From Patescibacteria group bacterium (GTDB taxonomy: Bacteria; Patescibacteriota; JABMPQ01; JAQVVF01): 64,000 nt of DNA. The stretch spans positions 28,333 through 92,332 of the forward strand of contig JAQVVF010000001.1 of NCBI GenBank assembly GCA_028699085.1, given 5' to 3'. Below are positions 8,211 through 64,000 of this stretch, piece after piece. Made by a program: the position numbers and the translations under genes. The notes beneath the pieces were generated by a model, which was not told the DNA's origin, did no database searches, and saw only the letters and a program-made list of their open reading frames with translations. Position 1 is the first letter of the stretch. Each line of letters begins with the position of its first letter.

Positions 8211-8239
8211 TTGACAGATTTGTAAATTTATGCTATCAT
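8211..8239 (+). promoter_or_regulatory. Consensus sigma70 promoter TTGACA-N17-TATCAT upstream of the 8299 gene
   Basis: Read directly: TTGACA at 8211-8216, 17-nt spacer, TATCAT at 8234-8239. Confidence 0.6.
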
Positions 8240-8298: not shown

Positions 8299-9330
8299 AT
8301 GACTAAGATTAATGAATTTAACCCAACTAAAGACATTCTAGAAATACTTAGTGGTTTGAAAAAAAGAACCAAAAGTATTTTGCTTAAAAGATTCGGTTTG
8401 GGAGAAAAGAATAAGATGACTTTAGAGAGCATCGGACAAGCTTACAAAATTACTCGTGAAAGAGTAAGACAAATTGAGTCTGTTGCTTTATCTGAATTAA
8501 AAAAATCTCCTAAAATTACTGAATTAAAAAAATATGAAGCAATGTTAGAAGACTTACTCAATGAACACGGCAAAATCATGGAGCATAATTTTTTAATGTC
8601 AGAATTTAGAAAAAAATATAATCTAGACCCTATTCACGATAATGCAATCGAATTTGTATTAAAAGTTTCTTCAAAATTTAGTTCAATCAAAGAAGATGAA
8701 GAGATTAAAAAGACTTGGTTATTAGTTGATGCAGATTTAAATTTTTCTAAAAAAGTTATTAATTCTTTTGTTTTAAATCTAGAAGGCAAAGGCAAACCAG
8801 TATTAGAAAATGAGCTTTCTAACAATTTTGAATTAGAAATCAAAGACAGTAAAACATTAATTTCATATTTATCATTGAGCAAAAAAATATTAAAGAATCC
8901 ATTCAACGAATGGGGATTATCTGATTGGAGAGAAATTGTACCAAAAGGTGTTAAAGATAAGGCATATATTGTTTTAGATAAATTTAATAAGCCAGCTCAT
9001 TTCACAAAAATTACGGAACTTATTAATTCTGCAAAATTTGATTGCAAAACCGCTATTCCTCAAACTGTACACAATGAATTAATCAAAGATCAAAGATTTG
9101 TGTTGGTCGGTAGAGGCATGTATGCTTTGAAGAAATGGGGTTTTCAACAAGGAACAGTTGCTGAAATTATTGAACAAGTTATCAAAGAATCTGGAAAAAC
9201 TTTATCTAAAGAAAATATTATAAATAAGGTACTAGAACAAAGATTTGTTAAAAAGAATACAATTGTTCTAGCTTTACAAAACAAACAAAGATTCCAAAGA
9301 GTTGATGGATTATATTGCTTGGCAAAATAA
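8299..9330 (+). CDS. Putative transcription factor: N-terminal sigma-70 region-4-like HTH plus C-terminal HARE-HTH-like domain
   Basis: N-terminal LKRFGLGEKNKMTLESIGQAYKITRERVRQIESVAL matches the sigma70 region 4 / RpoD C-terminal pattern. C-terminal FVLVGRGMYALKKWGF matches the HARE-HTH signature (FVKVGRGLFGLREW in RpoE-delta). It sits immediately upstream of the membrane + ATPase pair. Confidence 0.55.
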   Translation: MTKINEFNPTKDILEILSGLKKRTKSILLKRFGLGEKNKMTLESIGQAYKITRERVRQIESVALSELKKSPKITELKKYEAMLEDLLNEHGKIMEHNFLMSEFRKKYNLDPIHDNAIEFVLKVSSKFSSIKEDEEIKKTWLLVDADLNFSKKVINSFVLNLEGKGKPVLENELSNNFELEIKDSKTLISYLSLSKKILKNPFNEWGLSDWREIVPKGVKDKAYIVLDKFNKPAHFTKITELINSAKFDCKTAIPQTVHNELIKDQRFVLVGRGMYALKKWGFQQGTVAEIIEQVIKESGKTLSKENIINKVLEQRFVKKNTIVLALQNKQRFQRVDGLYCLAK

Positions 9331-9405: not shown

Positions 9406-10695
9406 ATGACTGATCTTCCGTCATTAGATATTGCTTCTCAATTGCGTGATTTTTTTAGCACGTTTGGTTTTATTTTTGTCCAAGCTTGGTGGGCAATTAT
9501 ACTTGGCTTAATTTTCTTAGCTTATTATGCTTTTTTTAGAATACAAAATAATAAATTTTTAGCTGGAATTGAATATGTTCTTCTGGCAATTTCTGTACCA
9601 GCAGATAGCGAAAAAAGTCCGAAATCAATGGAACAAGTTTTGGCCGGATTCCATGGTATTTATTCTCCGCCTAATTGGTCAGAAGTCTGGATCAAAGGAG
9701 AACAACAAGCTCATATTAGTTTGGAATTAGTTGGTATTAATGGTCATGTCAGATTTATTGTTAGAACTCCTATTAAGCTTCGTGATGCAATTGAGGCTCA
9801 CATTTACGCACAATATCCAGATGCCGAACTTACCGAAGTTGAGGATTATACAGAATTTATTCCTAACAAATGGCCGAATGATCAATATGAATTGTTCGGC
9901 ACAGATTTTAAATTAATGAAGCCAGATTCCTATCCGATTCGAACATATATGCAATTTGCTGAAGAATTCGATAAGGGTTTTATCGATCCGATTTCTGCCT
10001 TCACTGAAGTTATGGGCAAATTAAATAACGGCGAGCAAATTTGGCTACAAATAACGATTAGACCGGTCAATGATTCATGGAAAGAAGAAGGTGAAAAAGA
10101 AGTTGCAAAGCTTATTGGTAAAAAAGTTGAATTGCCAGAAGATTTTTTTCAAAAAACAGTTGTTAAAGGTTGGCATAACGTTTTAAGTGCAACTGATGCA
10201 ATTTTACAAGTTCCTGCTGCTGAATCTAAAGAAACAAAAAAAGAGTATGAGTCTTTGATGCAATTTTTATCTCCTGGAGAACAAGATGTTGTCACATCAA
10301 TTCAGAGAAATATTGCCAAAGTTGGTTTTGAAACAAAATTCCGTTTCATTTATGTTGCAAAAAAAGATGTCTATCAAAAAGGACGTGGTGTTGTTGCGAC
10401 ATTAGGCGCTTTAAAACTTTTGCACACTCAAAATCTTAATTGGTTTTGGTTAGACAAACATACTAAAACGAAACTTGATTATTGGAAATTTAGAATTCCT
10501 GGTAAGCAAAGAAAAATTGTTAGATATTATAAAGAGCGCGATATGGATGCTGGAGTGCCGCCTTGCATTTTGAGTATTGAGGAATTAGCTACTTTATTTC
10601 ATTTCCCTTATGTTTCAGTTGAATCTCCTTCAGTTATTAGCGCACAATCAAGTAAAGCCGAGCCACCTTCAGATTTACCTGTTGGCAGGCAATAA
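9406..10695 (+). CDS. Single-pass membrane protein (429 aa), paralog of the N-terminal domain of the fused ATPase at 61742 onward
   Basis: One TM helix (aa 20-44). The following domain aligns with the N-terminal 430 aa of the 61742 ORF (LAISVPADSEKSP...INGHVRFIVRTPIKLRDAIEAHIYAQYPDAE versus LISVPREVKQ...INGEIRFYVSTPKRLQDYIEKTIHSQYPKAY). Confidence 0.6.
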   Translation: MTDLPSLDIASQLRDFFSTFGFIFVQAWWAIILGLIFLAYYAFFRIQNNKFLAGIEYVLLAISVPADSEKSPKSMEQVLAGFHGIYSPPNWSEVWIKGEQQAHISLELVGINGHVRFIVRTPIKLRDAIEAHIYAQYPDAELTEVEDYTEFIPNKWPNDQYELFGTDFKLMKPDSYPIRTYMQFAEEFDKGFIDPISAFTEVMGKLNNGEQIWLQITIRPVNDSWKEEGEKEVAKLIGKKVELPEDFFQKTVVKGWHNVLSATDAILQVPAAESKETKKEYESLMQFLSPGEQDVVTSIQRNIAKVGFETKFRFIYVAKKDVYQKGRGVVATLGALKLLHTQNLNWFWLDKHTKTKLDYWKFRIPGKQRKIVRYYKERDMDAGVPPCILSIEELATLFHFPYVSVESPSVISAQSSKAEPPSDLPVGRQ

Positions 10696-10710
10696 TTTAA
10701 TTTTAAAAAC

Positions 10711-12186
10711 ATGGCAAATAATGATATATCCGTTTTCGCAACGACAAACTATCGTAACAAAAAAGTAGTTTTTGGTATCAAGCGCGATGATCGTCGCAGA
10801 CACATGTATGTGATTGGAAAAACTGGCATGGGCAAAACAAACCTTATGGAAAATATGGCGATTTCTGATATTCGTGCTGGTAATGGTATTTGTGTTGTCG
10901 ATCCGCATGGCGAGTTTGCTGAGAGAATGTTAGATTTTGTGCCTGCTAATCGTATTAACGATGTTATCTATTTTAATCCAGGTGATATGGATTATCCAAT
11001 TGCTTTTAATGTTATGGAGAATATCAATCCTGCATATAAACATTTAATATCATCAGGACTTATCGGCGTTTTTAAAAAAATCTGGGCCGATTCCTGGGGT
11101 CCTCGTCTTGAATATGTTTTAAGAAATTCAATTTTAGCCTTACTCGATTATCCAGGCTCAACAATGCTTGGCATTATGAGAATGCTTGTAGATAAAGAAT
11201 ACCGAAAAAAAGTTATTGATAAGATACAAGATCCAGTAGTCAAGCAATTCTGGGTTGAAGAATATTCAAAATATCCAGATAAATTTCAAACAGAAGCAAT
11301 CGCACCTATCCAAAATAAAGTCGGACAATTTTTATCAATTTCCTTAATCAGAAACATTGTTGGCCAGTCAAAGTCTACAATTGATATGCGTGAAGCAATG
11401 GACACAAAGAAAATTCTAATCCTCAATCTAGCAAAAGGAAGAATTGGTGAAGATGCTTCAGCATTATTTGGCGCTGTCATTATAACCAAGATTCAATTAG
11501 CCGCCATGTCTCGTGTTGATATTCCGGAAGAAGAGAGAGCTGATTTTTATCTTTATGTCGATGAGTTCCAGAATTTTGCAACTGAATCATTTGCTGATAT
11601 TTTATCCGAAGCTAGAAAATATCACTTGAATTTAATTATCGGCCATCAATATATCGGGCAATTAGAAACAGGAGGATCAACAAAAGTACGTGATGCTGTT
11701 TTTGGCAATGTCGGTACAATTGCTTGTTTTAGAGTTGGTGCAGCTGATGCTGAATTTTTAGTCAGCGAATTTGAACCAATTTTTACTGAAATTGATTTAG
11801 TTAACCTAACAAAATATAATATCTATCTGAAATTAATGATTGATGGTGTTGCTTCTCAAGCATTCAGTGCTACCACCTTACCGCCATCTACAAGAAAAGA
11901 GGGCAATGCTGAAAAAATTATTAAAGTTTCGCGTGAACGATATGCGACTGACCGCAAGATTGTTGAAGAAAGAATTTCTAAATGGTCAGAAAATATTGTC
12001 AGAGATGAAGCAACAATGCCACAAGCAAGATTTTTTCCAAAGAAAAAAGAAGCTCAGCAAAGTCATCAACCTTTCAAAAAAGCATTTGGTGAAATCTTCA
12101 AACAAAAATTACAAAAAGAAGAAACCAAGCAAGAAGAAAAACCAAGAGAGACATTAAAGCCAGGACAAGTAATAAAAATGGATTAG
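10711..12186 (+). CDS. P-loop NTPase of the FtsK/HerA/TraD-VirD4 (coupling-protein-like) superfamily, with a K/E-rich C-terminal tail
   Basis: Walker A (VIGKTGMGKT) preceded by DDRRRHMYVIG, Walker B (LYVDEFQNF), and motifs VVDPHGE and GHQY. Paralog of the C-terminal half of the 61742 ORF. Confidence 0.65.
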   Translation: MANNDISVFATTNYRNKKVVFGIKRDDRRRHMYVIGKTGMGKTNLMENMAISDIRAGNGICVVDPHGEFAERMLDFVPANRINDVIYFNPGDMDYPIAFNVMENINPAYKHLISSGLIGVFKKIWADSWGPRLEYVLRNSILALLDYPGSTMLGIMRMLVDKEYRKKVIDKIQDPVVKQFWVEEYSKYPDKFQTEAIAPIQNKVGQFLSISLIRNIVGQSKSTIDMREAMDTKKILILNLAKGRIGEDASALFGAVIITKIQLAAMSRVDIPEEERADFYLYVDEFQNFATESFADILSEARKYHLNLIIGHQYIGQLETGGSTKVRDAVFGNVGTIACFRVGAADAEFLVSEFEPIFTEIDLVNLTKYNIYLKLMIDGVASQAFSATTLPPSTRKEGNAEKIIKVSRERYATDRKIVEERISKWSENIVRDEATMPQARFFPKKKEAQQSHQPFKKAFGEIFKQKLQKEETKQEEKPRETLKPGQVIKMD

Positions 12187-12199
12187 CATAATAAATTTT

Positions 12200-12225
12200 A
12201 GCCAGGATATATTCCTGGCTTTTTA
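12200..12225 (+). terminator. Rho-independent terminator AGCCAGGA-TATAT-TCCTGGCT plus T-run
   Basis: Read directly after the ATPase gene stop. Confidence 0.7.
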
Positions 12226-55216: not shown

Positions 55217-56569
55217 CTAGATTTCACGTCTTTTTTCAAGATTTCTAAAGCTTGCAACATTCTGTTCAAAGAATAGATCAACAACACCTGTTGGTCCATT
55301 TCTATGCTTCTTTATATGAATCTCAGCAATATGTTTACGATCTGTATCTTTTTTATAAACTTCTTCACGATAAATAAACATTACTACATCGGCATCCTGT
55401 TCAATACTACCACTTTCTCTTAAATCTGACAATTGTGGAATTTGCGGTGTTCTATTCTCTACGGCACGAGATAATTGAGATAAAGCCAAAACAGGTACAT
55501 TGAGTTCGCGAGCTATACCTTTTAGTGCTCTAGATATTTCGGAAACTTCTTGGACTCTGCTTTCTGTATTTCGGCCTTCCATTAATTGCAAATAATCGAC
55601 AACCAAAAAACCTAATCCATGTTCAGCATGCAATCTTCTTGCTTTCGTTCTTATTTCCATGATATTTGAAGAAGGGGAGTCATCAATAAATAATGGCGCT
55701 TCCGAAAGCACACCCATCGCATGTCCGATTCTTGGAAAATCATCATCTTCTTCGCGATCGGAAAGTTTTCCTGTTCTCATTCGCCATAAATCAACATTTG
55801 CTTCAGAGCAAAGTATTCTATCAACAAGCTGCTCTTTCGACATTTCTAAACTAAATATGCCAACAGGAATTTTTTGTTTAGCAATATTCTTTGCAAAATC
55901 TAATGCTAGAGAAGTTTTACCCATAGATGGTCTAGCAGCTAGAATAATCAAATCAGATCGCTGAAAACCAGCCAAGACATTATCTAGATCTGGAAAGCCA
56001 GTTGGAATTCCACGCAATTTACTGCCATCTCGATGCAATTCATCAATCCTTTCAAAGGCGTCAGTCAAAACATCTTTAATAACAATAAAATTTTGCTTTA
56101 AATATTTTTGCGAAATACCAAACAGTTTTTGTTCAGCTTCATCCAGAAGTTTTTCAATATCTTTTCCTTCTTGATATCCTAATCTCGAAATATCACCAGC
56201 AGCAGTAATCAATTTTCTTAATGTCGATTTTCTTTGAACTATTTTAGCATAATGAATAATATTTCCAGCAGTTGGCACAATATTTGCTAAAGAAACTAAA
56301 TAGCTTCTTCCGCCAATCAAATCAAGATGTCCTTTGTCAGTTAGAGAATTAGCCAAACTTACGACATCAATAGGTTCACGTTTTTCATACAATTCCAACA
56401 TTGAAGAAAAAATAATGCTATTTTTTTCTTCATAAAAATCTTCCGGACGTAAAAAATCAGAAACTTTTATAACTGCATCTTTATCAATCAAAAGTGAGCC
56501 TAAAACAGATTTTTCAGCTTCTTTATTTCTTGGCGGTAATTTTTCAACAACGTCGTTTTGGTTTTCCAT
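55217..56569 (-). CDS. dnaB: Replicative DNA helicase DnaB
   Basis: N-terminal primase-interaction domain (EAEKSVLGSLL) and RecA-like core with Walker A (ARPSMGKTSLAL). Confidence 0.9.
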   Translation of the reverse strand: MENQNDVVEKLPPRNKEAEKSVLGSLLIDKDAVIKVSDFLRPEDFYEEKNSIIFSSMLELYEKREPIDVVSLANSLTDKGHLDLIGGRSYLVSLANIVPTAGNIIHYAKIVQRKSTLRKLITAAGDISRLGYQEGKDIEKLLDEAEQKLFGISQKYLKQNFIVIKDVLTDAFERIDELHRDGSKLRGIPTGFPDLDNVLAGFQRSDLIILAARPSMGKTSLALDFAKNIAKQKIPVGIFSLEMSKEQLVDRILCSEANVDLWRMRTGKLSDREEDDDFPRIGHAMGVLSEAPLFIDDSPSSNIMEIRTKARRLHAEHGLGFLVVDYLQLMEGRNTESRVQEVSEISRALKGIARELNVPVLALSQLSRAVENRTPQIPQLSDLRESGSIEQDADVVMFIYREEVYKKDTDRKHIAEIHIKKHRNGPTGVVDLFFEQNVASFRNLEKRREI

Positions 56570-58581: not shown

Positions 58582-59988
58582 TTATCTCATGTCTCCACTA
58601 TTTCTAACATCAGCTCTCTTCATCGGCCACCAATTTTTTCCTGATTTATCATAAAAATCAGATAGATTCCAGATATAAACAGAATTATCAGTTAGGCTAG
58701 AAATAACTTCTAGAACCTTATTATTATCAATATCAGATAAAGTTGGATAAGTTAAAAAATTTCCGCCAGAAGATTCCGTCATTAATGGCCAGCTATCTTT
58801 GATAGCATCGCCATTATTTTTCCAAGCATAAATTCTATCATCAGCAGTACCTAAGATTTCGCAACTTCCATCATTATCAACATCAGCTAGATTTACAAAT
58901 TTTATGCCCTTATCAGATTTCTTTGGCCAGCCTTTTATTTCAGCTCCGAAATTACCAAGAACATGAACACCAGATTTATTTGCAAAAGCAATATTTGCAA
59001 TTCCATCGCTATCAATATCTCCAAGTGCAAGATCAGAAACCCCATCTTCATTATTTATTGTTAAAATCTGCTGACCATCTTTTGTATAGACTAAAATACT
59101 ATTTTCTTTCGTGCTTACAATAATATTAGAGTCAGCTTTATTTATAACATTACCTAATACAATTTCCATATCTACAGATTGCGAATTAATTTCCTGCGGA
59201 AATCCAGATAGCATCTGTCCATCTTCTTTTGCCACAAAAAGATTTGTTTTCCCAGATGATAAAGCTGTATAAATAATTTCTGATTTTGTATCATTATTCA
59301 AATCTCCAGAAGCTACTGAAGAATTAATTTTTTCGCCTGTTTCTTTCGGCCAACCAGAAATTATTAAACCATTATCTGAAAGTGCATAAATTATCCTGTC
59401 TCCAAAAGCAATTACTTCCATTTTATTATCTGATGTAATATTAGAAATTACAGGAGTATTCTCATTGCCTAAATTGCTCAGAGCTCTTGGCCAGCCTTCA
59501 ATAATTTCAGCATCACCGGAAAAAGCGTATATCGAATTACTTGTTCCAATTATAACATCTAACTTGCCGTCTGCATTCAAGTCAGCAATCGATGGAGTTG
59601 ATTTTCCTAAATATTCATCAATCTTAATAGGCCAATTTGGAACTTCTGATCCGTCATCATTTAGAGCATAAATCAGATGATCGCTTGTGCCAAAAATAAT
59701 TTCTGGTTTTTTGTCCGCATCAATATCGCCAACGGTTGTTCTTGAAGGTATTCCGCTAATACTTCTTGGCCAGCCTGCTTTATAAACCAAAACAGGAAAC
59801 AAATCCTTGATATTTGGACCTTGATTTTTCTTCTTTACAATTGATTGAGGAATGATTGGTTCGTTTTTGTAGGCACCTTTATAAACAGTGTATCCCATTG
59901 CTGCCATCATTGCAGCACCAGCAAATAAAACGCCAATCAAAGTCCCAACACGAACCTTAGTTTTTGTTTGTGTCAGTGTCTCTGGCAT
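58582..59988 (-). CDS. Membrane-anchored FG-GAP/VCBS-repeat beta-propeller protein
   Basis: N-terminal TM helix. Repeated D.D.DG-type FG-GAP motifs (ADLNADGKLDVIIGT, GDLNNDTKSEIIYTA, GDIDSDGIANIAFAN, ADVDNDGSCEILGTA). Confidence 0.55.
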   Translation of the reverse strand: MPETLTQTKTKVRVGTLIGVLFAGAAMMAAMGYTVYKGAYKNEPIIPQSIVKKKNQGPNIKDLFPVLVYKAGWPRSISGIPSRTTVGDIDADKKPEIIFGTSDHLIYALNDDGSEVPNWPIKIDEYLGKSTPSIADLNADGKLDVIIGTSNSIYAFSGDAEIIEGWPRALSNLGNENTPVISNITSDNKMEVIAFGDRIIYALSDNGLIISGWPKETGEKINSSVASGDLNNDTKSEIIYTALSSGKTNLFVAKEDGQMLSGFPQEINSQSVDMEIVLGNVINKADSNIIVSTKENSILVYTKDGQQILTINNEDGVSDLALGDIDSDGIANIAFANKSGVHVLGNFGAEIKGWPKKSDKGIKFVNLADVDNDGSCEILGTADDRIYAWKNNGDAIKDSWPLMTESSGGNFLTYPTLSDIDNNKVLEVISSLTDNSVYIWNLSDFYDKSGKNWWPMKRADVRNSGDMR

Positions 59989-60020: not shown

Positions 60021-61136
60021 TTATTCAACGTCCTTGCCAATCCATTCTTCCAATACATCTTTGATATCAATTGCTTTAACTTCAGGAAGTTTTGTTCCAG
60101 CTTTATCTTCTTGTGCTGATAATTGTAACCGTTCAATCTTTTCGTTAATTGCTAATTCTTTCTGTGACAATTTTTTAATCTCAATTTCATCAGTTGATTT
60201 TTCTCTTTTTTGCTGAACATCTGAAAGTGTAGCTTCTAATTGTTTTATTTTTCCAGGAGCATCAATAATCTGTAATCTAACCATAGCTGAAGATTCATCA
60301 ATTAGATCAATAGCTTTATCAGGCAAATATCTATTTTTAATATACTTATCAGATAATTTCGCGGCAGCTTCAATTGCATCAGAAGAAATAATAACTTTAT
60401 GATGATCTTCGTAAACTTTCTTCAAACCATCTAATATTCTTATTGTCATCAAAACATCAGGCGGGTCAACCATTACTGGTTGAAAACGTCTTTCTAAGCT
60501 TGCTTCTGGTTTTATATATTGATTATATTCATCTAACGTTGTTGCACCAACAGCCTGTAAATCGCCGCGAGCTAATGCTGGCTTAATAATATCCGAAGGA
60601 TCCAAAGCTCCTTCAGCGCCTTTTGATTGGACAATTAAATGGACTTCATCAATAAACAATATAATAGTTCTATTGGAAGCTTTAAGCTCATCCATTACTT
60701 TTCTTAACCTTTGTTCAAATTCACCTCTGTATTTTGTTCCTGCAATTAAACTGCTGACATTCAATGCTAGTACTCTTTTATTTTGCAAACTTTCTGGCAC
60801 TTTTTTTTCTACAATTCTTTGCGCTAAACCTTCCACAATTGCCGTTTTTCCAACACCAGCTTTTCCTAATAAAATTGGATTATTTTTAGTTCTTCTAGAT
60901 AATATCTGGGTAATTCTCTCTATTTCCGATTCGCGGTCAATGACAGGATCTAATTTTTTGTCTCTTGCATCAGCTGTAACATCTATAGAATAAGAATCTA
61001 GTATTGGTGTTTTACCTCCGCCAGAGATTTTAGAGCCAGATCCTGGAGACCTTTTAAATCGATCGCGATTTAGCCAAATTAAATAAGCAATCGCTACAAC
61101 AACTAAAAAAATAATTGCCCATATGCTTGTCGTCAT
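60021..61136 (-). CDS. Membrane-anchored AAA+ ATPase corresponding to the ClpB/ClpC first nucleotide-binding domain (NBD1) plus the start of the middle domain. There is no NBD2
   Basis: N-terminal TM helix. Strong collinear similarity to ClpB NBD1 (NPILLGKAGVGKTAIVEGLAQRIV, ILFIDEVH, GATTLDEYNQYIKPEASLERRFQPV, LPDKAIDLIDE). The ORF ends after the coiled-coil start. Confidence 0.6.
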   Translation of the reverse strand: MTTSIWAIIFLVVVAIAYLIWLNRDRFKRSPGSGSKISGGGKTPILDSYSIDVTADARDKKLDPVIDRESEIERITQILSRRTKNNPILLGKAGVGKTAIVEGLAQRIVEKKVPESLQNKRVLALNVSSLIAGTKYRGEFEQRLRKVMDELKASNRTIILFIDEVHLIVQSKGAEGALDPSDIIKPALARGDLQAVGATTLDEYNQYIKPEASLERRFQPVMVDPPDVLMTIRILDGLKKVYEDHHKVIISSDAIEAAAKLSDKYIKNRYLPDKAIDLIDESSAMVRLQIIDAPGKIKQLEATLSDVQQKREKSTDEIEIKKLSQKELAINEKIERLQLSAQEDKAGTKLPEVKAIDIKDVLEEWIGKDVE

Positions 61137-61269: not shown

Positions 61270-61737
61270 ATGATAAAAAACATACAAGAAAAAACTCCAC
61301 AAGGAAAAGAGCCTCAAGATGTAGAATCAGAAATCGAAAGGTTAAAAAGAGATTTAGCAGAAAAGGAAAAAGCTCTCAAGGAACAAAAAGAAATAAAACC
61401 AGAAGCAGAAACGCTCAAGCCAGAAAAACAGGAGCAAGAAGAAGTTACAAAAGCTGAAGAAAAAAAGGAAACCTCAGAAGCGCCTAAAAAAGAAAAAGCA
61501 CCAGAACAATTATCTCCAAGAATGAATGATCCTGAAATTTTAAAAGAACTAACCGAACTTAAAGAATCAGGACAACCGAGGCAAGTCATTGAGCTTGCTT
61601 ATCTTGCTTTTGAAAAGGGTACTTCCTATGCGCTTGATATTGCTAACAAAACAAAAGATCCTTCTATTATTGCGGGATTTCGTGGTATACTAACTAGTAA
61701 GTTGGGCGAAAGATTAAAAGAAAAAAACAAACTTTAA
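61270..61737 (+). CDS. Hypothetical K/E-rich protein (155 aa), immediately upstream of the fused membrane-ATPase gene
   Basis: ORF with a charged low-complexity N-terminal half. The 4-nt gap to the next gene suggests an operon. Confidence 0.35.
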   Translation: MIKNIQEKTPQGKEPQDVESEIERLKRDLAEKEKALKEQKEIKPEAETLKPEKQEQEEVTKAEEKKETSEAPKKEKAPEQLSPRMNDPEILKELTELKESGQPRQVIELAYLAFEKGTSYALDIANKTKDPSIIAGFRGILTSKLGERLKEKNKL

Positions 61738-61741
61738 AAAA

Positions 61742-64000
61742 TGCAAAATCAAATCGAAAACATAACTAGTTCTATAAACGAGTCGTATCTTGGCATTATT
61801 TTTATTACTGCAGTTTTTCTTGTCGGAATATTATTAATTATCAGCTTATTAAAAATAATGCGAAAAAGGAATATTATTCCACATTCTTTGAATATGGTTA
61901 CTTTGCTAATTTCTGTCCCAAGAGAAGTCAAGCAAGTTACAGAAGAAGCAAAAAAAGAAGAAAAAGAAATGATTTCAATCGCAGAAACAATGTTTGCTAA
62001 TATCTATTCTATTGAAACTGCGTCGAATGGTTTGATGTCTGGACTCTATGGAAAAGAATATGTTTCTTTTGAAATAGTCGCCATTAACGGTGAGATTCGT
62101 TTTTATGTCTCTACTCCGAAAAGATTGCAGGATTATATTGAAAAGACAATTCATTCTCAATATCCGAAAGCCTATATTTCCGAAGAAGGCGAGTACAATG
62201 TGTTTAAACCCAAAAGTCAAGTTAGGGGTGTTATGCTTGTAACTGAAAAACAAAACTATTTGCCATTTAAAACATATCAAACAATAGAAACCGATCCTCT
62301 GAATGCTATTACAAATGCATTAAGCAAATTAGATGAAAAAACAGAAGGGGCAGCAATTCAATATTTAATTAGACCAGCTGGAAAAAAATGGATGAAAAAA
62401 GGTCCTCATATTGCTAGAGAAATGCAACGCGGAAAAACTTATGAATATGCATCAGCAAGCCTTTTAGGCAAACTTTTTAAAAGAAAAGAAGAAGGCAAAT
62501 CTAGTGTCCTAGAGCAAGCAGTGTTGCCTGGAGCTTCAGAACAACAAATGTCTGGAGGAGCGCCAATGCTTTCTCCGATGATTCAAGAACAAATTAAAGC
62601 TTTGGAAGTAAAATCTTCTAAGCTTGGTTTTGAAACAAATATTAGAATTATTTCCTCATCAGATTTAGATACAAAAGCAGAAGCAAATTTAAGAAATATT
62701 GTCGGCGCTTTTACAGAATATACGGATCCAAACCTGAACAAATTTGTTGAAAAGAAATTGAATGTTCAGAAACTAATTCAGGCTTTCATTTTTCGCACTT
62801 TTGACGAAAAAAGAAAAAGCATTTTGAACACTGAAGAATTAGCATCTGTATTCCATTTGCCGACAAAATTTGCCGAAACACCAAATATTCATTGGCTATT
62901 AGCAAGAGATGCTCCGGCTCCACATAATGTTCCTAAAGAAGGATTATTATTAGGTAAAAACACATTTCGAGGTATCGAAACACCTATTCGGATTAAAGAT
63001 GATGATCGAAGAAGACACATGTATATTATTGGCCAAACTGGTGTTGGTAAATCAAACTTTTTACAAAACATGATTGTTCAAGATATTAAAGATGGCAAAG
63101 GTCTTTGCGTTGTTGATCCACATGGAGATTTAGTTGAAAGTGTCTTGCCATTTATTCCAAAAGAAAGAGTTGATGATATTATTCTTTTTGAACCTTTTGA
63201 TGTTAATCGACCGATGGGCTTAAATATGCTTGAATTTAAAACTGAAGACCAAAAAGATTTTGCTGTCCAGGAAATGATGCAAATTTTTTACAAACTATTT
63301 CCGCCAGAAATGATTGGCCCAATGTTCGAGCATCAAATGAGAAATGTCATGCTGACATTAATGGCTGACAAAGAAAATCCTGGAACTTTAGCCGAAATTC
63401 CAAGAATGTTCACAGATAATGAATATGCCAAAGAATGGATTGAAAAATTGAAAGATCCTGTTGTTAAAGCTTTTTGGGAGAAAGAAATGGCAAAGACTTC
63501 AGATTTTCACAAATCAGAAATGCTTGGTTATCTAATTTCTAAAGTTGGTCGTTTTGTTGAAAATGAAATGATGAGAAATATAATTGGCCAAAGCCATTCT
63601 TCTTTTGATCTTAGAAAAATCATGGATGAGGGTAAAGTCTTGCTTGTAAATTTATCAAAAGGAAAAATTGGTGAAACAAATTCTTCTTTATTAGGCTTAA
63701 TTATTGTTTCTAAAATTCAGATGGCAGCTTATTCACGTGCTGATATTCCAGAATCAGAAAGAAAAGACTTTTATTTATACGTTGATGAGTTCCAAAATTT
63801 TGCTACCGACAGTTTTGCTTCAATATTATCCGAAGCCAGAAAATACAGACTTAATTTAATCGTCGCTCACCAATATGTTAAACAGCTTGAAGAGAAGATC
63901 AGAGATGCTGTCTTTGGAAATGTCGGTACTTTTACTGCATTTCGTGTTGGTGTAGAGGATGCTGAGATTGTCGCCAAAGAGCTTGAACCTGTTTTTACAG
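61742..64000 (+). CDS. Fused single-TM membrane domain plus TraD/VirD4-like P-loop ATPase (partial, runs off the window end)
   Basis: Hand-translated open frame from the ATG at 61742 with no stop to 64000. The N-terminal 430 aa is paralogous to the 9406 protein. The C-terminal part is paralogous to the 10711 ATPase (DDRRRHMYIIGQTGVGKS, VVDPHGD, LYVDEFQNF, AHQY). Confidence 0.6.

Follow-up and report, generated by a model that had tools for sequence, protein, structure and literature searches.

Two ancient paralogue lineages of a membrane-anchored ATPase, spread throughout the Patescibacteria and chromosomally inherited, are encoded in the 64,000-nt stretch of DNA analysed here (the window; a Patescibacteria group bacterium, contig JAQVVF010000001.1, positions 28,333 to 92,332). 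Lineage 1 is present as two adjacent genes, B coding for the ATPase and A lying directly 5′ of B. Lineage 2 is present as a single gene in which the two homologous domains are fused. In both lineages, a motor domain of the kind found in type IV coupling proteins (T4CPs) follows a domain of the Pfam family DUF8128, whose predicted fold is like that of the N-terminal domain (NTD) of VirB4. The architecture, as modelled, is a chimera with a VirB4-like head and a VirD4-like motor. We propose, with a probability of about 0.55, that the family is a translocase associated with, or derived from, type IV secretion systems (T4SSs) and docked on the chromosomal T4SS of Patescibacteria.

The main features are as follows.

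9406..10695, + strand: gene A, 429 aa, DUF8128 protein; C-terminal tail disordered, with a conserved EPPxxLP motif at its end
10693..10710, + strand: junction, made of the TAA of A and 15 nt (TTTAATTTTAAAAAC), in frame with B
10711..12186, + strand: gene B, 491 aa, T4CP-type (TrwB/VirD4/TraD-like) ATPase
61741..62940, + strand: N-half of the fused paralogue, with a transmembrane (TM) helix (aa 12-43) and DUF8128; pLDDT 85.3 in the AlphaFold2 (AF2) model
62941..64000, + strand: C-half of the fused paralogue, T4CP-type ATPase; Walker A at nt 63031-63054; cut at the window end

An earlier note on this DNA had placed the open reading frames (ORFs) of A and B, as well as the continuous fused ORF, at these positions, and they are correct. 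The fused ORF runs from the ATG at 61741 to the window edge, with 753 residues visible; the full protein, P0121 from a Patescibacteria metagenome-assembled genome (MAG), has 840. A is 26% identical to the N-half of the fused protein (E 2e-27) and B is 49% identical to its C-half (E 8e-124), both well outside what chance would give and in agreement with the two-domain homology that the note had proposed.

The motor half is of the coupling-protein type

By its sequence, the motor belongs with the type IV coupling proteins (TrwB/VirD4/TraD), all-alpha insertion included, and its catalytic motifs are intact. All three motifs announced for gene B were found: Walker A (GKTGMGKT, residues 36-43, nt 10816-10839), VVDPHG (residues 62-67) and Walker B (FYLYVDEF, residues 279-286, nt 11545-11568). 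No TM segment was found in the 491 residues of B, which end in a K/E-rich tail of 90 residues.

Pfam models TrwB_AAD_bind (7.5e-13), DUF87 (2.7e-10) and TraG-D_C (1.2e-5) all matched B above their gathering scores. PF10412 reached 48.6 bits against a cut-off of 20.5, and PF12696 was also above threshold. When PDB sequences were searched with B using phmmer, the best match was TrwB (1.1e-8), DotL was found at 0.0099, and VirB4 was absent from the matches. With R388 TrwB and TrwK from NC_028464 as references, hhalign aligned the family profile to TrwB with Prob 96.4 and E 1.3e-9 over 252 columns, spanning Walker A, the all-alpha insertion and the sequence up to the HQ motif. The same comparison of the motor with TrwK/VirB4 gave Prob 4.9, in the Walker A region only. 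In the AF2 model of the fused protein, the block at residues 502-615, which separates the Walker A strand from the Walker B strand, contains helices only. The best NCBIfam models are those of TraD and VirD4, although B remains far below their curated cut-offs (45-55 bits versus 250-650). Overall, Pfam, the best NCBIfam models, PDB sequences and the alignment to TrwB agree on the TraD/VirD4-like character that had been read from the motifs. The earlier note had also considered that the ATPase might fall into a known family with an unrelated partner; no curated cut-off of such a family was reached.

The front half is predicted to fold like the N-terminal domain of VirB4

DUF8128 (PF26449) appears among the precomputed Pfam matches of the window protein and of nearly all listed homologues, split and fused. 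Scans of gene A with NCBIfam and with a Pfam set lacking PF26449 returned noise only, and no paper mentioning DUF8128 was found in the literature searched. The sole hydrophobic segment of the gene A protein, at residues 16-47, has an acidic N-terminal flank and a neutral-to-basic downstream flank. This charge distribution argues for an N-out orientation, with the bulk of the protein in the cytoplasm. One hydrophobic segment followed by a folded domain of about 370 residues thus stands in place of the two-TM anchor of classical coupling proteins, a difference that the earlier note had already pointed out. Its term "membrane domain" holds for the single TM segment, but the bulk of the module is a cytoplasmic domain of about 370 residues held by the N-out helix.

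The AF2 model of the gene A protein has a pLDDT of 85.5 and a pTM of 0.79. With this model, the top 14 Foldseek matches were all TrwK chains, with probabilities of about 1.0 and of 0.85 for the fourteenth, and a 457-residue partial chain was among them. A lacks a P-loop, and the C-terminal domain of VirB4 is matched by the ATPase half in a separate comparison; A should therefore match the VirB4 NTD, that is, residues 15-400 of TrwK (PMC9259494). From the models, we infer that DUF8128 has a fold like that of the VirB4/TrwK NTD. The domain had been described as unrecognised, which is true of its sequence outside its own family; by its fold it can be recognised as VirB4-NTD-like. EccE of the mycobacterial ESX type VII secretion system was matched with a much weaker score and a partial domain alignment, no sequence relation being seen, and may share a sub-fold only.

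Three residues of the EPPxxLP motif region, P421, L424 and P425, are invariant in the gene A homologues. The C-terminal tail of A is disordered in the model of A alone, and the equivalent linker is ordered in the AF2 model of the fused protein.

The family can be compared with several known systems. As in the T4CPs (TrwB of R388, VirD4, TraD, DotL, Cag-beta), the Walker A and B motifs, the arginine of the EARKY motif and the HQ motif are intact, an all-alpha insertion is present, and a cytoplasmic motor is anchored to the membrane. Unlike T4CPs, it carries one TM segment and a VirB4-NTD-like domain of 370 residues where T4CPs have a two-TM stub. It also lacks linked relaxase or T4SS genes, resides in the core chromosome with two paralogues per genome, is often split into two genes in one of its lineages, and lies far below every curated TraD/VirD4 NCBIfam cut-off. 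VirB4 (R388 TrwK; Thermoanaerobacter pseudethanolicus VirB4) likewise combines an NTD with a RecA-like C-terminal domain in about 800 residues. However, no sequence relation to VirB4 was seen, either for the NTD or for the C-terminal domain past the Walker A region; the Pfam model CagE_TrbE_VirB gave no match at E<=1, and the family does not stand in a T4SS cluster beside VirB3, VirB6 and VirB8 homologues. By its arrangement, the A plus B pair follows the same logic as TrsD plus TrsE, TrsD being a VirB4-NTD-like protein with its own gene beside that of the TrsE (VirB4) ATPase, in pGO1-type and Patescibacteria clusters (PMC12102498). The difference is that TrsD stands beside VirB4 in T4SS clusters, about once per genome, whereas DUF8128 stands beside a T4CP-type motor outside such clusters.

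Two old paralogue lineages

A search with the gene A protein detected 1,368 homologues. Each of the best 120 stands alone and has 390-530 residues, and nearly all carry PF26449. With the fused protein, 3,155 homologues were detected. Nearly all of the best 120 are of about 780-890 residues, and all consist of DUF8128 (PF26449) followed by T4CP-type domains. Doudna-, Kuenen-, Parcu- and Saccharibacteria all have fused orthologues, which share 53-66% identity, with a mean column identity of 61%. In at least four other genomes, both types share a contig; they are therefore old paralogue lineages and did not arise by recent duplication.

When B was used as the query of an exhaustive HMMER search, 22,803 representative clusters were returned at E<=1e-3, of which 6,481 reached E<=1e-30. 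The top 150 representatives all outscore the window's own fused paralogue. DUF8128 is fused in front of the motor in 59 of these 150, for instance in P0250 (956 aa), the remainder being stand-alone ATPases. The split or fused state therefore does not define a lineage. With lineage 1 both fused and split and lineage 2 always fused, the simplest history that the sequences suggest is a fused ancestor with a later gene fission in the linker of lineage 1. The fusion had been taken to argue that the two domains act together, and this is reinforced by the fused forms in both lineages and by the adjacency of A and B in 60 of 80 species.

The stand-alone orthologues of B (P0241-P0390) vary from about 440 to more than 900 residues, owing to long variable C-terminal tails past the motor. 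By analogy with the C-terminus of TraD, these tails may be substrate- or partner-binding extensions.

In about 14 species, DUF8128 is encoded by a stand-alone gene (about 450-520 aa), and the surrounding 1.3-6 kb hold no T4CP-like ATPase (L022, L028, L029, L031, L034, L038, L043, L049, L052, L057, L059, L064, L072 and L083). These genes adjoin varied housekeeping genes, among them secF, dnaG/rpoD, dnaJ and cysS. They either form a third class or have their ATPase partner encoded elsewhere.

The Patescibacteria-type operon was also seen in many GTDB records titled "uncultured Gammaproteobacteria", "Candidatus Binatia" and "Bdellovibrionales" (L006, L010, L017, L021, L022 and others), and the NCBI names of two fused homologues mention Methylomirabilota and Binatia. 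Such records are most likely mislabelled or contaminated MAGs and not true occurrences outside the Patescibacteria.

The split between A and B is genuine

A and B are in one reading frame and are separated by a single TAA plus five codons. Because of the shared frame, the lesion to be considered is a nonsense mutation and not the frameshift that the earlier note had named as an alternative for 9406/10711. The pair could in principle be a nonsense-mutated pseudogene of a fused gene, or its fused product could arise through stop-codon read-through. The in-frame arrangement with one TAA speaks for this reading, as does the recurrence of the in-frame 15-nt spacing in one 45%-identical relative.

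We inspected each junction at 80 loci of lineage 1 from GTDB species representatives. A homologue of B lies directly 3′ of A in 60 of them, and the two are separate ORFs in 60/60. The distance between the genes ranges from a 14-nt overlap (-14) to +228 nt, further stops are frequent in the spacers, and the frames coincide in just 23 of the 60 loci, the chance expectation being one third. Calculated against the 88%-identical relative L004, the ratio of non-synonymous to synonymous substitution (dN/dS) is 0.052 in A and 0.042 in B. The existence of over 1,300 stand-alone A homologues also speaks against a pseudogene. An alternative genetic code was rejected, since TAA, TAG and TGA each terminate genes in the window. 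The junction survey and the dN/dS values rule out the pseudogene and speak against read-through, which might at most be occasional in this one genome. The A/B pair is a real, selected two-gene arrangement.

A Shine-Dalgarno-like motif was found in none of the 35 window genes checked, and the AT-rich leader of gene B resembles other gene starts of the same genome. A recurring AT-rich string (TTTTAATTTTTAAAC-ATG) precedes several starts, including that of B (e.g. 26650, 36197, 47570 and 10711). These sequences suggest Shine-Dalgarno-independent initiation with a conserved leader motif in the source genome.

Genomic neighbours

The neighbouring features are the following.

8211..8239, + strand: promoter-like site, TTGACA-17-TATCAT, TG-extended, 5′ of the Sigma70_r4/HARE-HTH gene; 11/12 consensus matches
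8299..9330, + strand: Sigma70_r4 + HARE-HTH protein, 343 aa; Pfam Sigma70_r4 1.3e-11, HARE-HTH 5.4e-9
12200..12220, no strand assigned: bidirectional terminator-like hairpin, 8-bp stem (5 GC pairs), T-runs on either strand; 14 nt past the stop of B
61270..61737, + strand: 155-aa ORF, stopping 3 nt before the fused gene; candidate partner of lineage 2

The window is core chromosome, with hrcA-grpE-dnaK-dnaJ, ribosomal protein genes, rpoA, mreB, murA, dnaB, recR and cysS. No relaxase or integrase was found among the genes of the 64 kb, and the 20-kb flanks of the relatives' loci hold housekeeping neighbours and no relaxase or T4SS gene. Synteny is kept between genomes whose proteins are 45% identical.

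In 48 of the 80 species loci, the Sigma70_r4/HARE-HTH gene lies directly upstream of the lineage 1 genes on the same strand. Downstream, mnmA is kept in 15/80 and alaS in 8/80. The earlier description of A and B as a two-gene unit holds for the two genes themselves, but the unit extends upstream to the gene at 8299-9330. The promoter-like site is a consensus match only, and the regional number of such sites is not above that in shuffled sequences. The terminator-like hairpin, also no more than a consensus match, would close the operon. The protein encoded at 8299-9330 may be an RNA-polymerase-associated factor and not a dedicated partner of the ATPase. It also matches PADLOC MzaA (1.3e-10), through sigma region 4. 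No paper on HARE-HTH in Patescibacteria was found in the literature searched.

At most of 80 metagenome loci of the fused gene (L084-L165 range), a small same-strand ORF is found directly upstream. In the 155-aa ORF of the window, a charged low-complexity N-half is followed by a helical C-terminal motif (..DPYLLDxFHD-like). The ORF had no Pfam match, and a homologue search returned the ORF alone. Using jackhmmer, homologues were detected in 18 of 68-70 metagenome loci, each time immediately 5′ of the fused gene and nowhere else in these loci. A second small-ORF family (..WLKIIPGVNRFFLEQEAKIK..) occupies the same position in 18 further loci. In both families, the N-half is disordered and charged or proline-rich and the C-half is helical. 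A common origin was not retained (hhalign Prob 0.1) and the two were treated as unrelated, which makes at least two families of small ORFs at this position.

Other genes near the fused paralogue were recorded in passing. The minus strand codes at 60021-61136 for a 371-aa protein with an N-terminal TM helix, a single ClpA/B-like AAA domain and AAA_lid_9, resembling a membrane-anchored half-Clp, and at 58582-59988 for an adjoining 468-aa FG-GAP repeat protein. In the 85%-identical relative L085, too, the fused gene has this half-Clp-like/FG-GAP pair as its neighbour. DnaB of this close relative (L085:1-2663; 946 aa) carries an intein with a LAGLIDADG endonuclease; the window DnaB (55217-56569; 450 aa) is intein-free.

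A probable role in type IV secretion, and its alternatives

A published survey of 3,035 Patescibacteria genomes counted 5,713 VirD4-type T4CP homologues, which occur in 2,918 of the genomes and of which 39 lie near a relaxase (Quinonero-Coronel et al. 2025, PMC12102498). Their N-terminal domain was not described, and a separate bona fide VirB4 is present inside the T4SS cluster of Patescibacteria (PMC12102498). In Southlakia epibionticum, the T4SS is essential and no coupling protein can be recognised in it (Wang et al. 2023, PMC10633639).

This species has two T4CP-like proteins with a P-loop domain starting near residue 380-400, as in the family described here. SEML1_0293 (921 aa, PF10412 at 402-719) is non-essential and is preceded by SEML1_0294, an essential 349-aa Sigma70_r4 + HARE-HTH protein annotated as RpoS (Wang et al. 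2023 Tables S1/S2, PMC10633639). SEML1_0142 (1,019 aa, P-loop domain 381-800) is essential, as is SEML1_0141, a 139-aa ORF located 12 nt upstream of it (PMC10633639). Unlike the A/B pair, both proteins are fused, and they are longer than those of the window. The T4CP-like genes and their upstream partners are flagged as Patescibacteria-enriched core families in that work, the text of which is silent on them (PMC10633639). From synteny and architecture, we take SEML1_0293 to belong to lineage 1 and SEML1_0142 to lineage 2. With this orthology, the functional specialisation that had been suggested for the two copies fits both their differing conserved neighbours and the transposon sequencing (Tn-seq) data, in which one is essential and the other is not.

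In the mechanism that we propose, the motor would form a hexameric ring under the membrane and would thread a macromolecular substrate, protein or DNA, in an ATP-driven manner, as in T4CPs. DUF8128 would act like the NTD of R388 VirB4, through which VirB4 dimerises and around which the tails of VirB3 and VirB8 wrap (PMC9259494). It would pair the subunits, dock to small membrane partners (VirB3, VirB8 tails) and keep the ring in place at the membrane, where the most economical mount would be a chromosomal T4SS without a coupling protein of its own. Pairing of the NTD-like DUF8128 with the NTD of VirB4 is a possible docking route. Given that the tail of A is disordered alone while its counterpart, the linker of the fused protein, is modelled as ordered, the EPPxxLP tail of the split form should clamp B in trans, along the surface used by that linker. 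The two lineages would serve different substrates or adaptors. The link with the T4SS is supported by the Tn-seq data of S. epibionticum, where SEML1_0142 and the small ORF upstream of it are essential, like the T4SS.

Several observations weigh against this assignment. On the structural side, the Foldseek TM-scores to TrwK are low (0.35-0.38), hhalign found no sequence-level likeness between DUF8128 and R388 TrwK (Prob 0.4), and a profile search of PDB sequences with DUF8128 gave no match. Moreover, the fold likeness comes from predicted models and the match to the TrwK NTD is inferred. On the genomic side, no T4SS gene is present in the 64-kb window, only 148 of the 5,713 T4CP homologues have virB4 nearby, and VirB4, with 2,417 of the 3,035 genomes, is less widespread than the T4CP homologues (PMC12102498). 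In S. epibionticum, the lineage-1-type SEML1_0293 is dispensable though the T4SS is essential (PMC10633639), and the use made of that species relies on orthology deduced from synteny and architecture.

The genomic points are those expected of a T4SS-independent housekeeping translocase, which we hold to be a less probable, though serious, competitor. In such a translocase, DUF8128 would pair with itself at the membrane and the motor would move DNA, protein or another polymer for a core process of Patescibacteria. The Sigma70_r4/HARE-HTH protein in lineage 1, or the small ORF in lineage 2, would be a substrate adaptor or regulator. In addition to the spread beyond VirB4, the rarity of virB4 linkage and the dispensable SEML1_0293, this competitor is favoured by the position of both copies among core genes (dnaK/dnaJ, mnmA, alaS, cysS, dnaB, recR, dnaX), by the very high, vertical conservation of the family and by the non-T4SS nature of each lineage's conserved neighbours. 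The authors of the survey themselves raised the possibility of exaptation (PMC12102498). However, incompleteness of MAGs could account for the gap of 500 genomes, and in ordinary systems, too, a T4CP gene frequently lies away from virB4 (PMC12102498). Also, S. epibionticum offers no other candidate coupling ATPase for its essential T4SS, and a VirB4-NTD-like module is otherwise known only within T4SSs.

An FtsK-like chromosome or DNA segregation pump, which would replace or assist FtsK at division, is improbable. The fused copy does lie near dnaB, recR and dnaX, and in one relative near ftsQ/ddl/mraY, and lineage 1 is linked with the gene of a DNA-binding protein. Nevertheless, the FtsK_SpoIIIE model (PF01580) matched the ATPase below threshold (18.5 bits versus a cut-off of 24) and in the Walker A region only, the KOPS-reading gamma domain was not found in the window ATPase, and S. 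epibionticum has a genuine essential FtsK, SEML1_0096, with four TM segments and alpha, beta and gamma domains (PMC10633639).

The ATPase could also be the coupling protein of an integrated element, conjugative or mobilisable. TraD and VirD4 families do give the best NCBIfam matches, but this very unlikely reading is effectively refuted by the core-gene context without relaxase, integrase or T4SS genes, by the conserved synteny and by orthologues that follow the Patescibacteria lineages; the NCBIfam scores are far from the cut-offs, and relaxases number just 109 in the 3,035 genomes (PMC12102498). Equally hard to sustain is a HerA- or DndH-type anti-phage defence ATPase: the PADLOC matches of B are confined to the generic motor (mad8 about 1e-14, HerA 1e-6) and no stronger than its T4CP matches, DUF8128 and both neighbouring genes had no specific match (in PADLOC, gene A and the neighbours matched nothing relevant to HerA-type defence), no nuclease, Sir2 or other effector partner is present, and a near-universal, vertical and partly essential family is unlike a defence island.

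A broader view may tentatively be put beside the T4SS-docked translocase. DUF8128-T4CP proteins might represent a third VirB4/VirD4 branch and a living intermediate, T4CPs having arisen from a VirB4-like ancestor by loss of the NTD. They would be essential translocases, either docked on VirB4 by NTD-NTD pairing or T4SS-independent, with lineages specialised through sigma-like HARE-HTH proteins or small helical adaptors. We regard this as possible, but as clearly less probable than the association with T4SSs itself.

Significance

The existence and the number (about two unlinked copies per genome) of Patescibacteria "T4CP homologues" have already been published. As far as the literature searched shows, the identification of DUF8128 as a VirB4-NTD-like module is new, as are the two-lineage structure with lineage-specific partners, the fission in lineage 1 and the link to essentiality data that had gone unremarked.

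A large part of bacterial diversity belongs to the Patescibacteria, whose way of life is attachment to host cells. In the single species studied genetically, the chromosomal T4SS is essential and has no recognised coupling ATPase. The family described here is found in about 96% of Patescibacteria genomes, usually twice, and one copy is essential in the published Tn-seq table. A VirB4-NTD-like fold for DUF8128, together with a partner gene for each paralogue, would turn an anonymous "T4CP homologue" into a testable hypothesis on how the motor is mounted and fed. The chimeric VirB4/VirD4 architecture may also bring new input to the debate over the divergence of both ATPase families.

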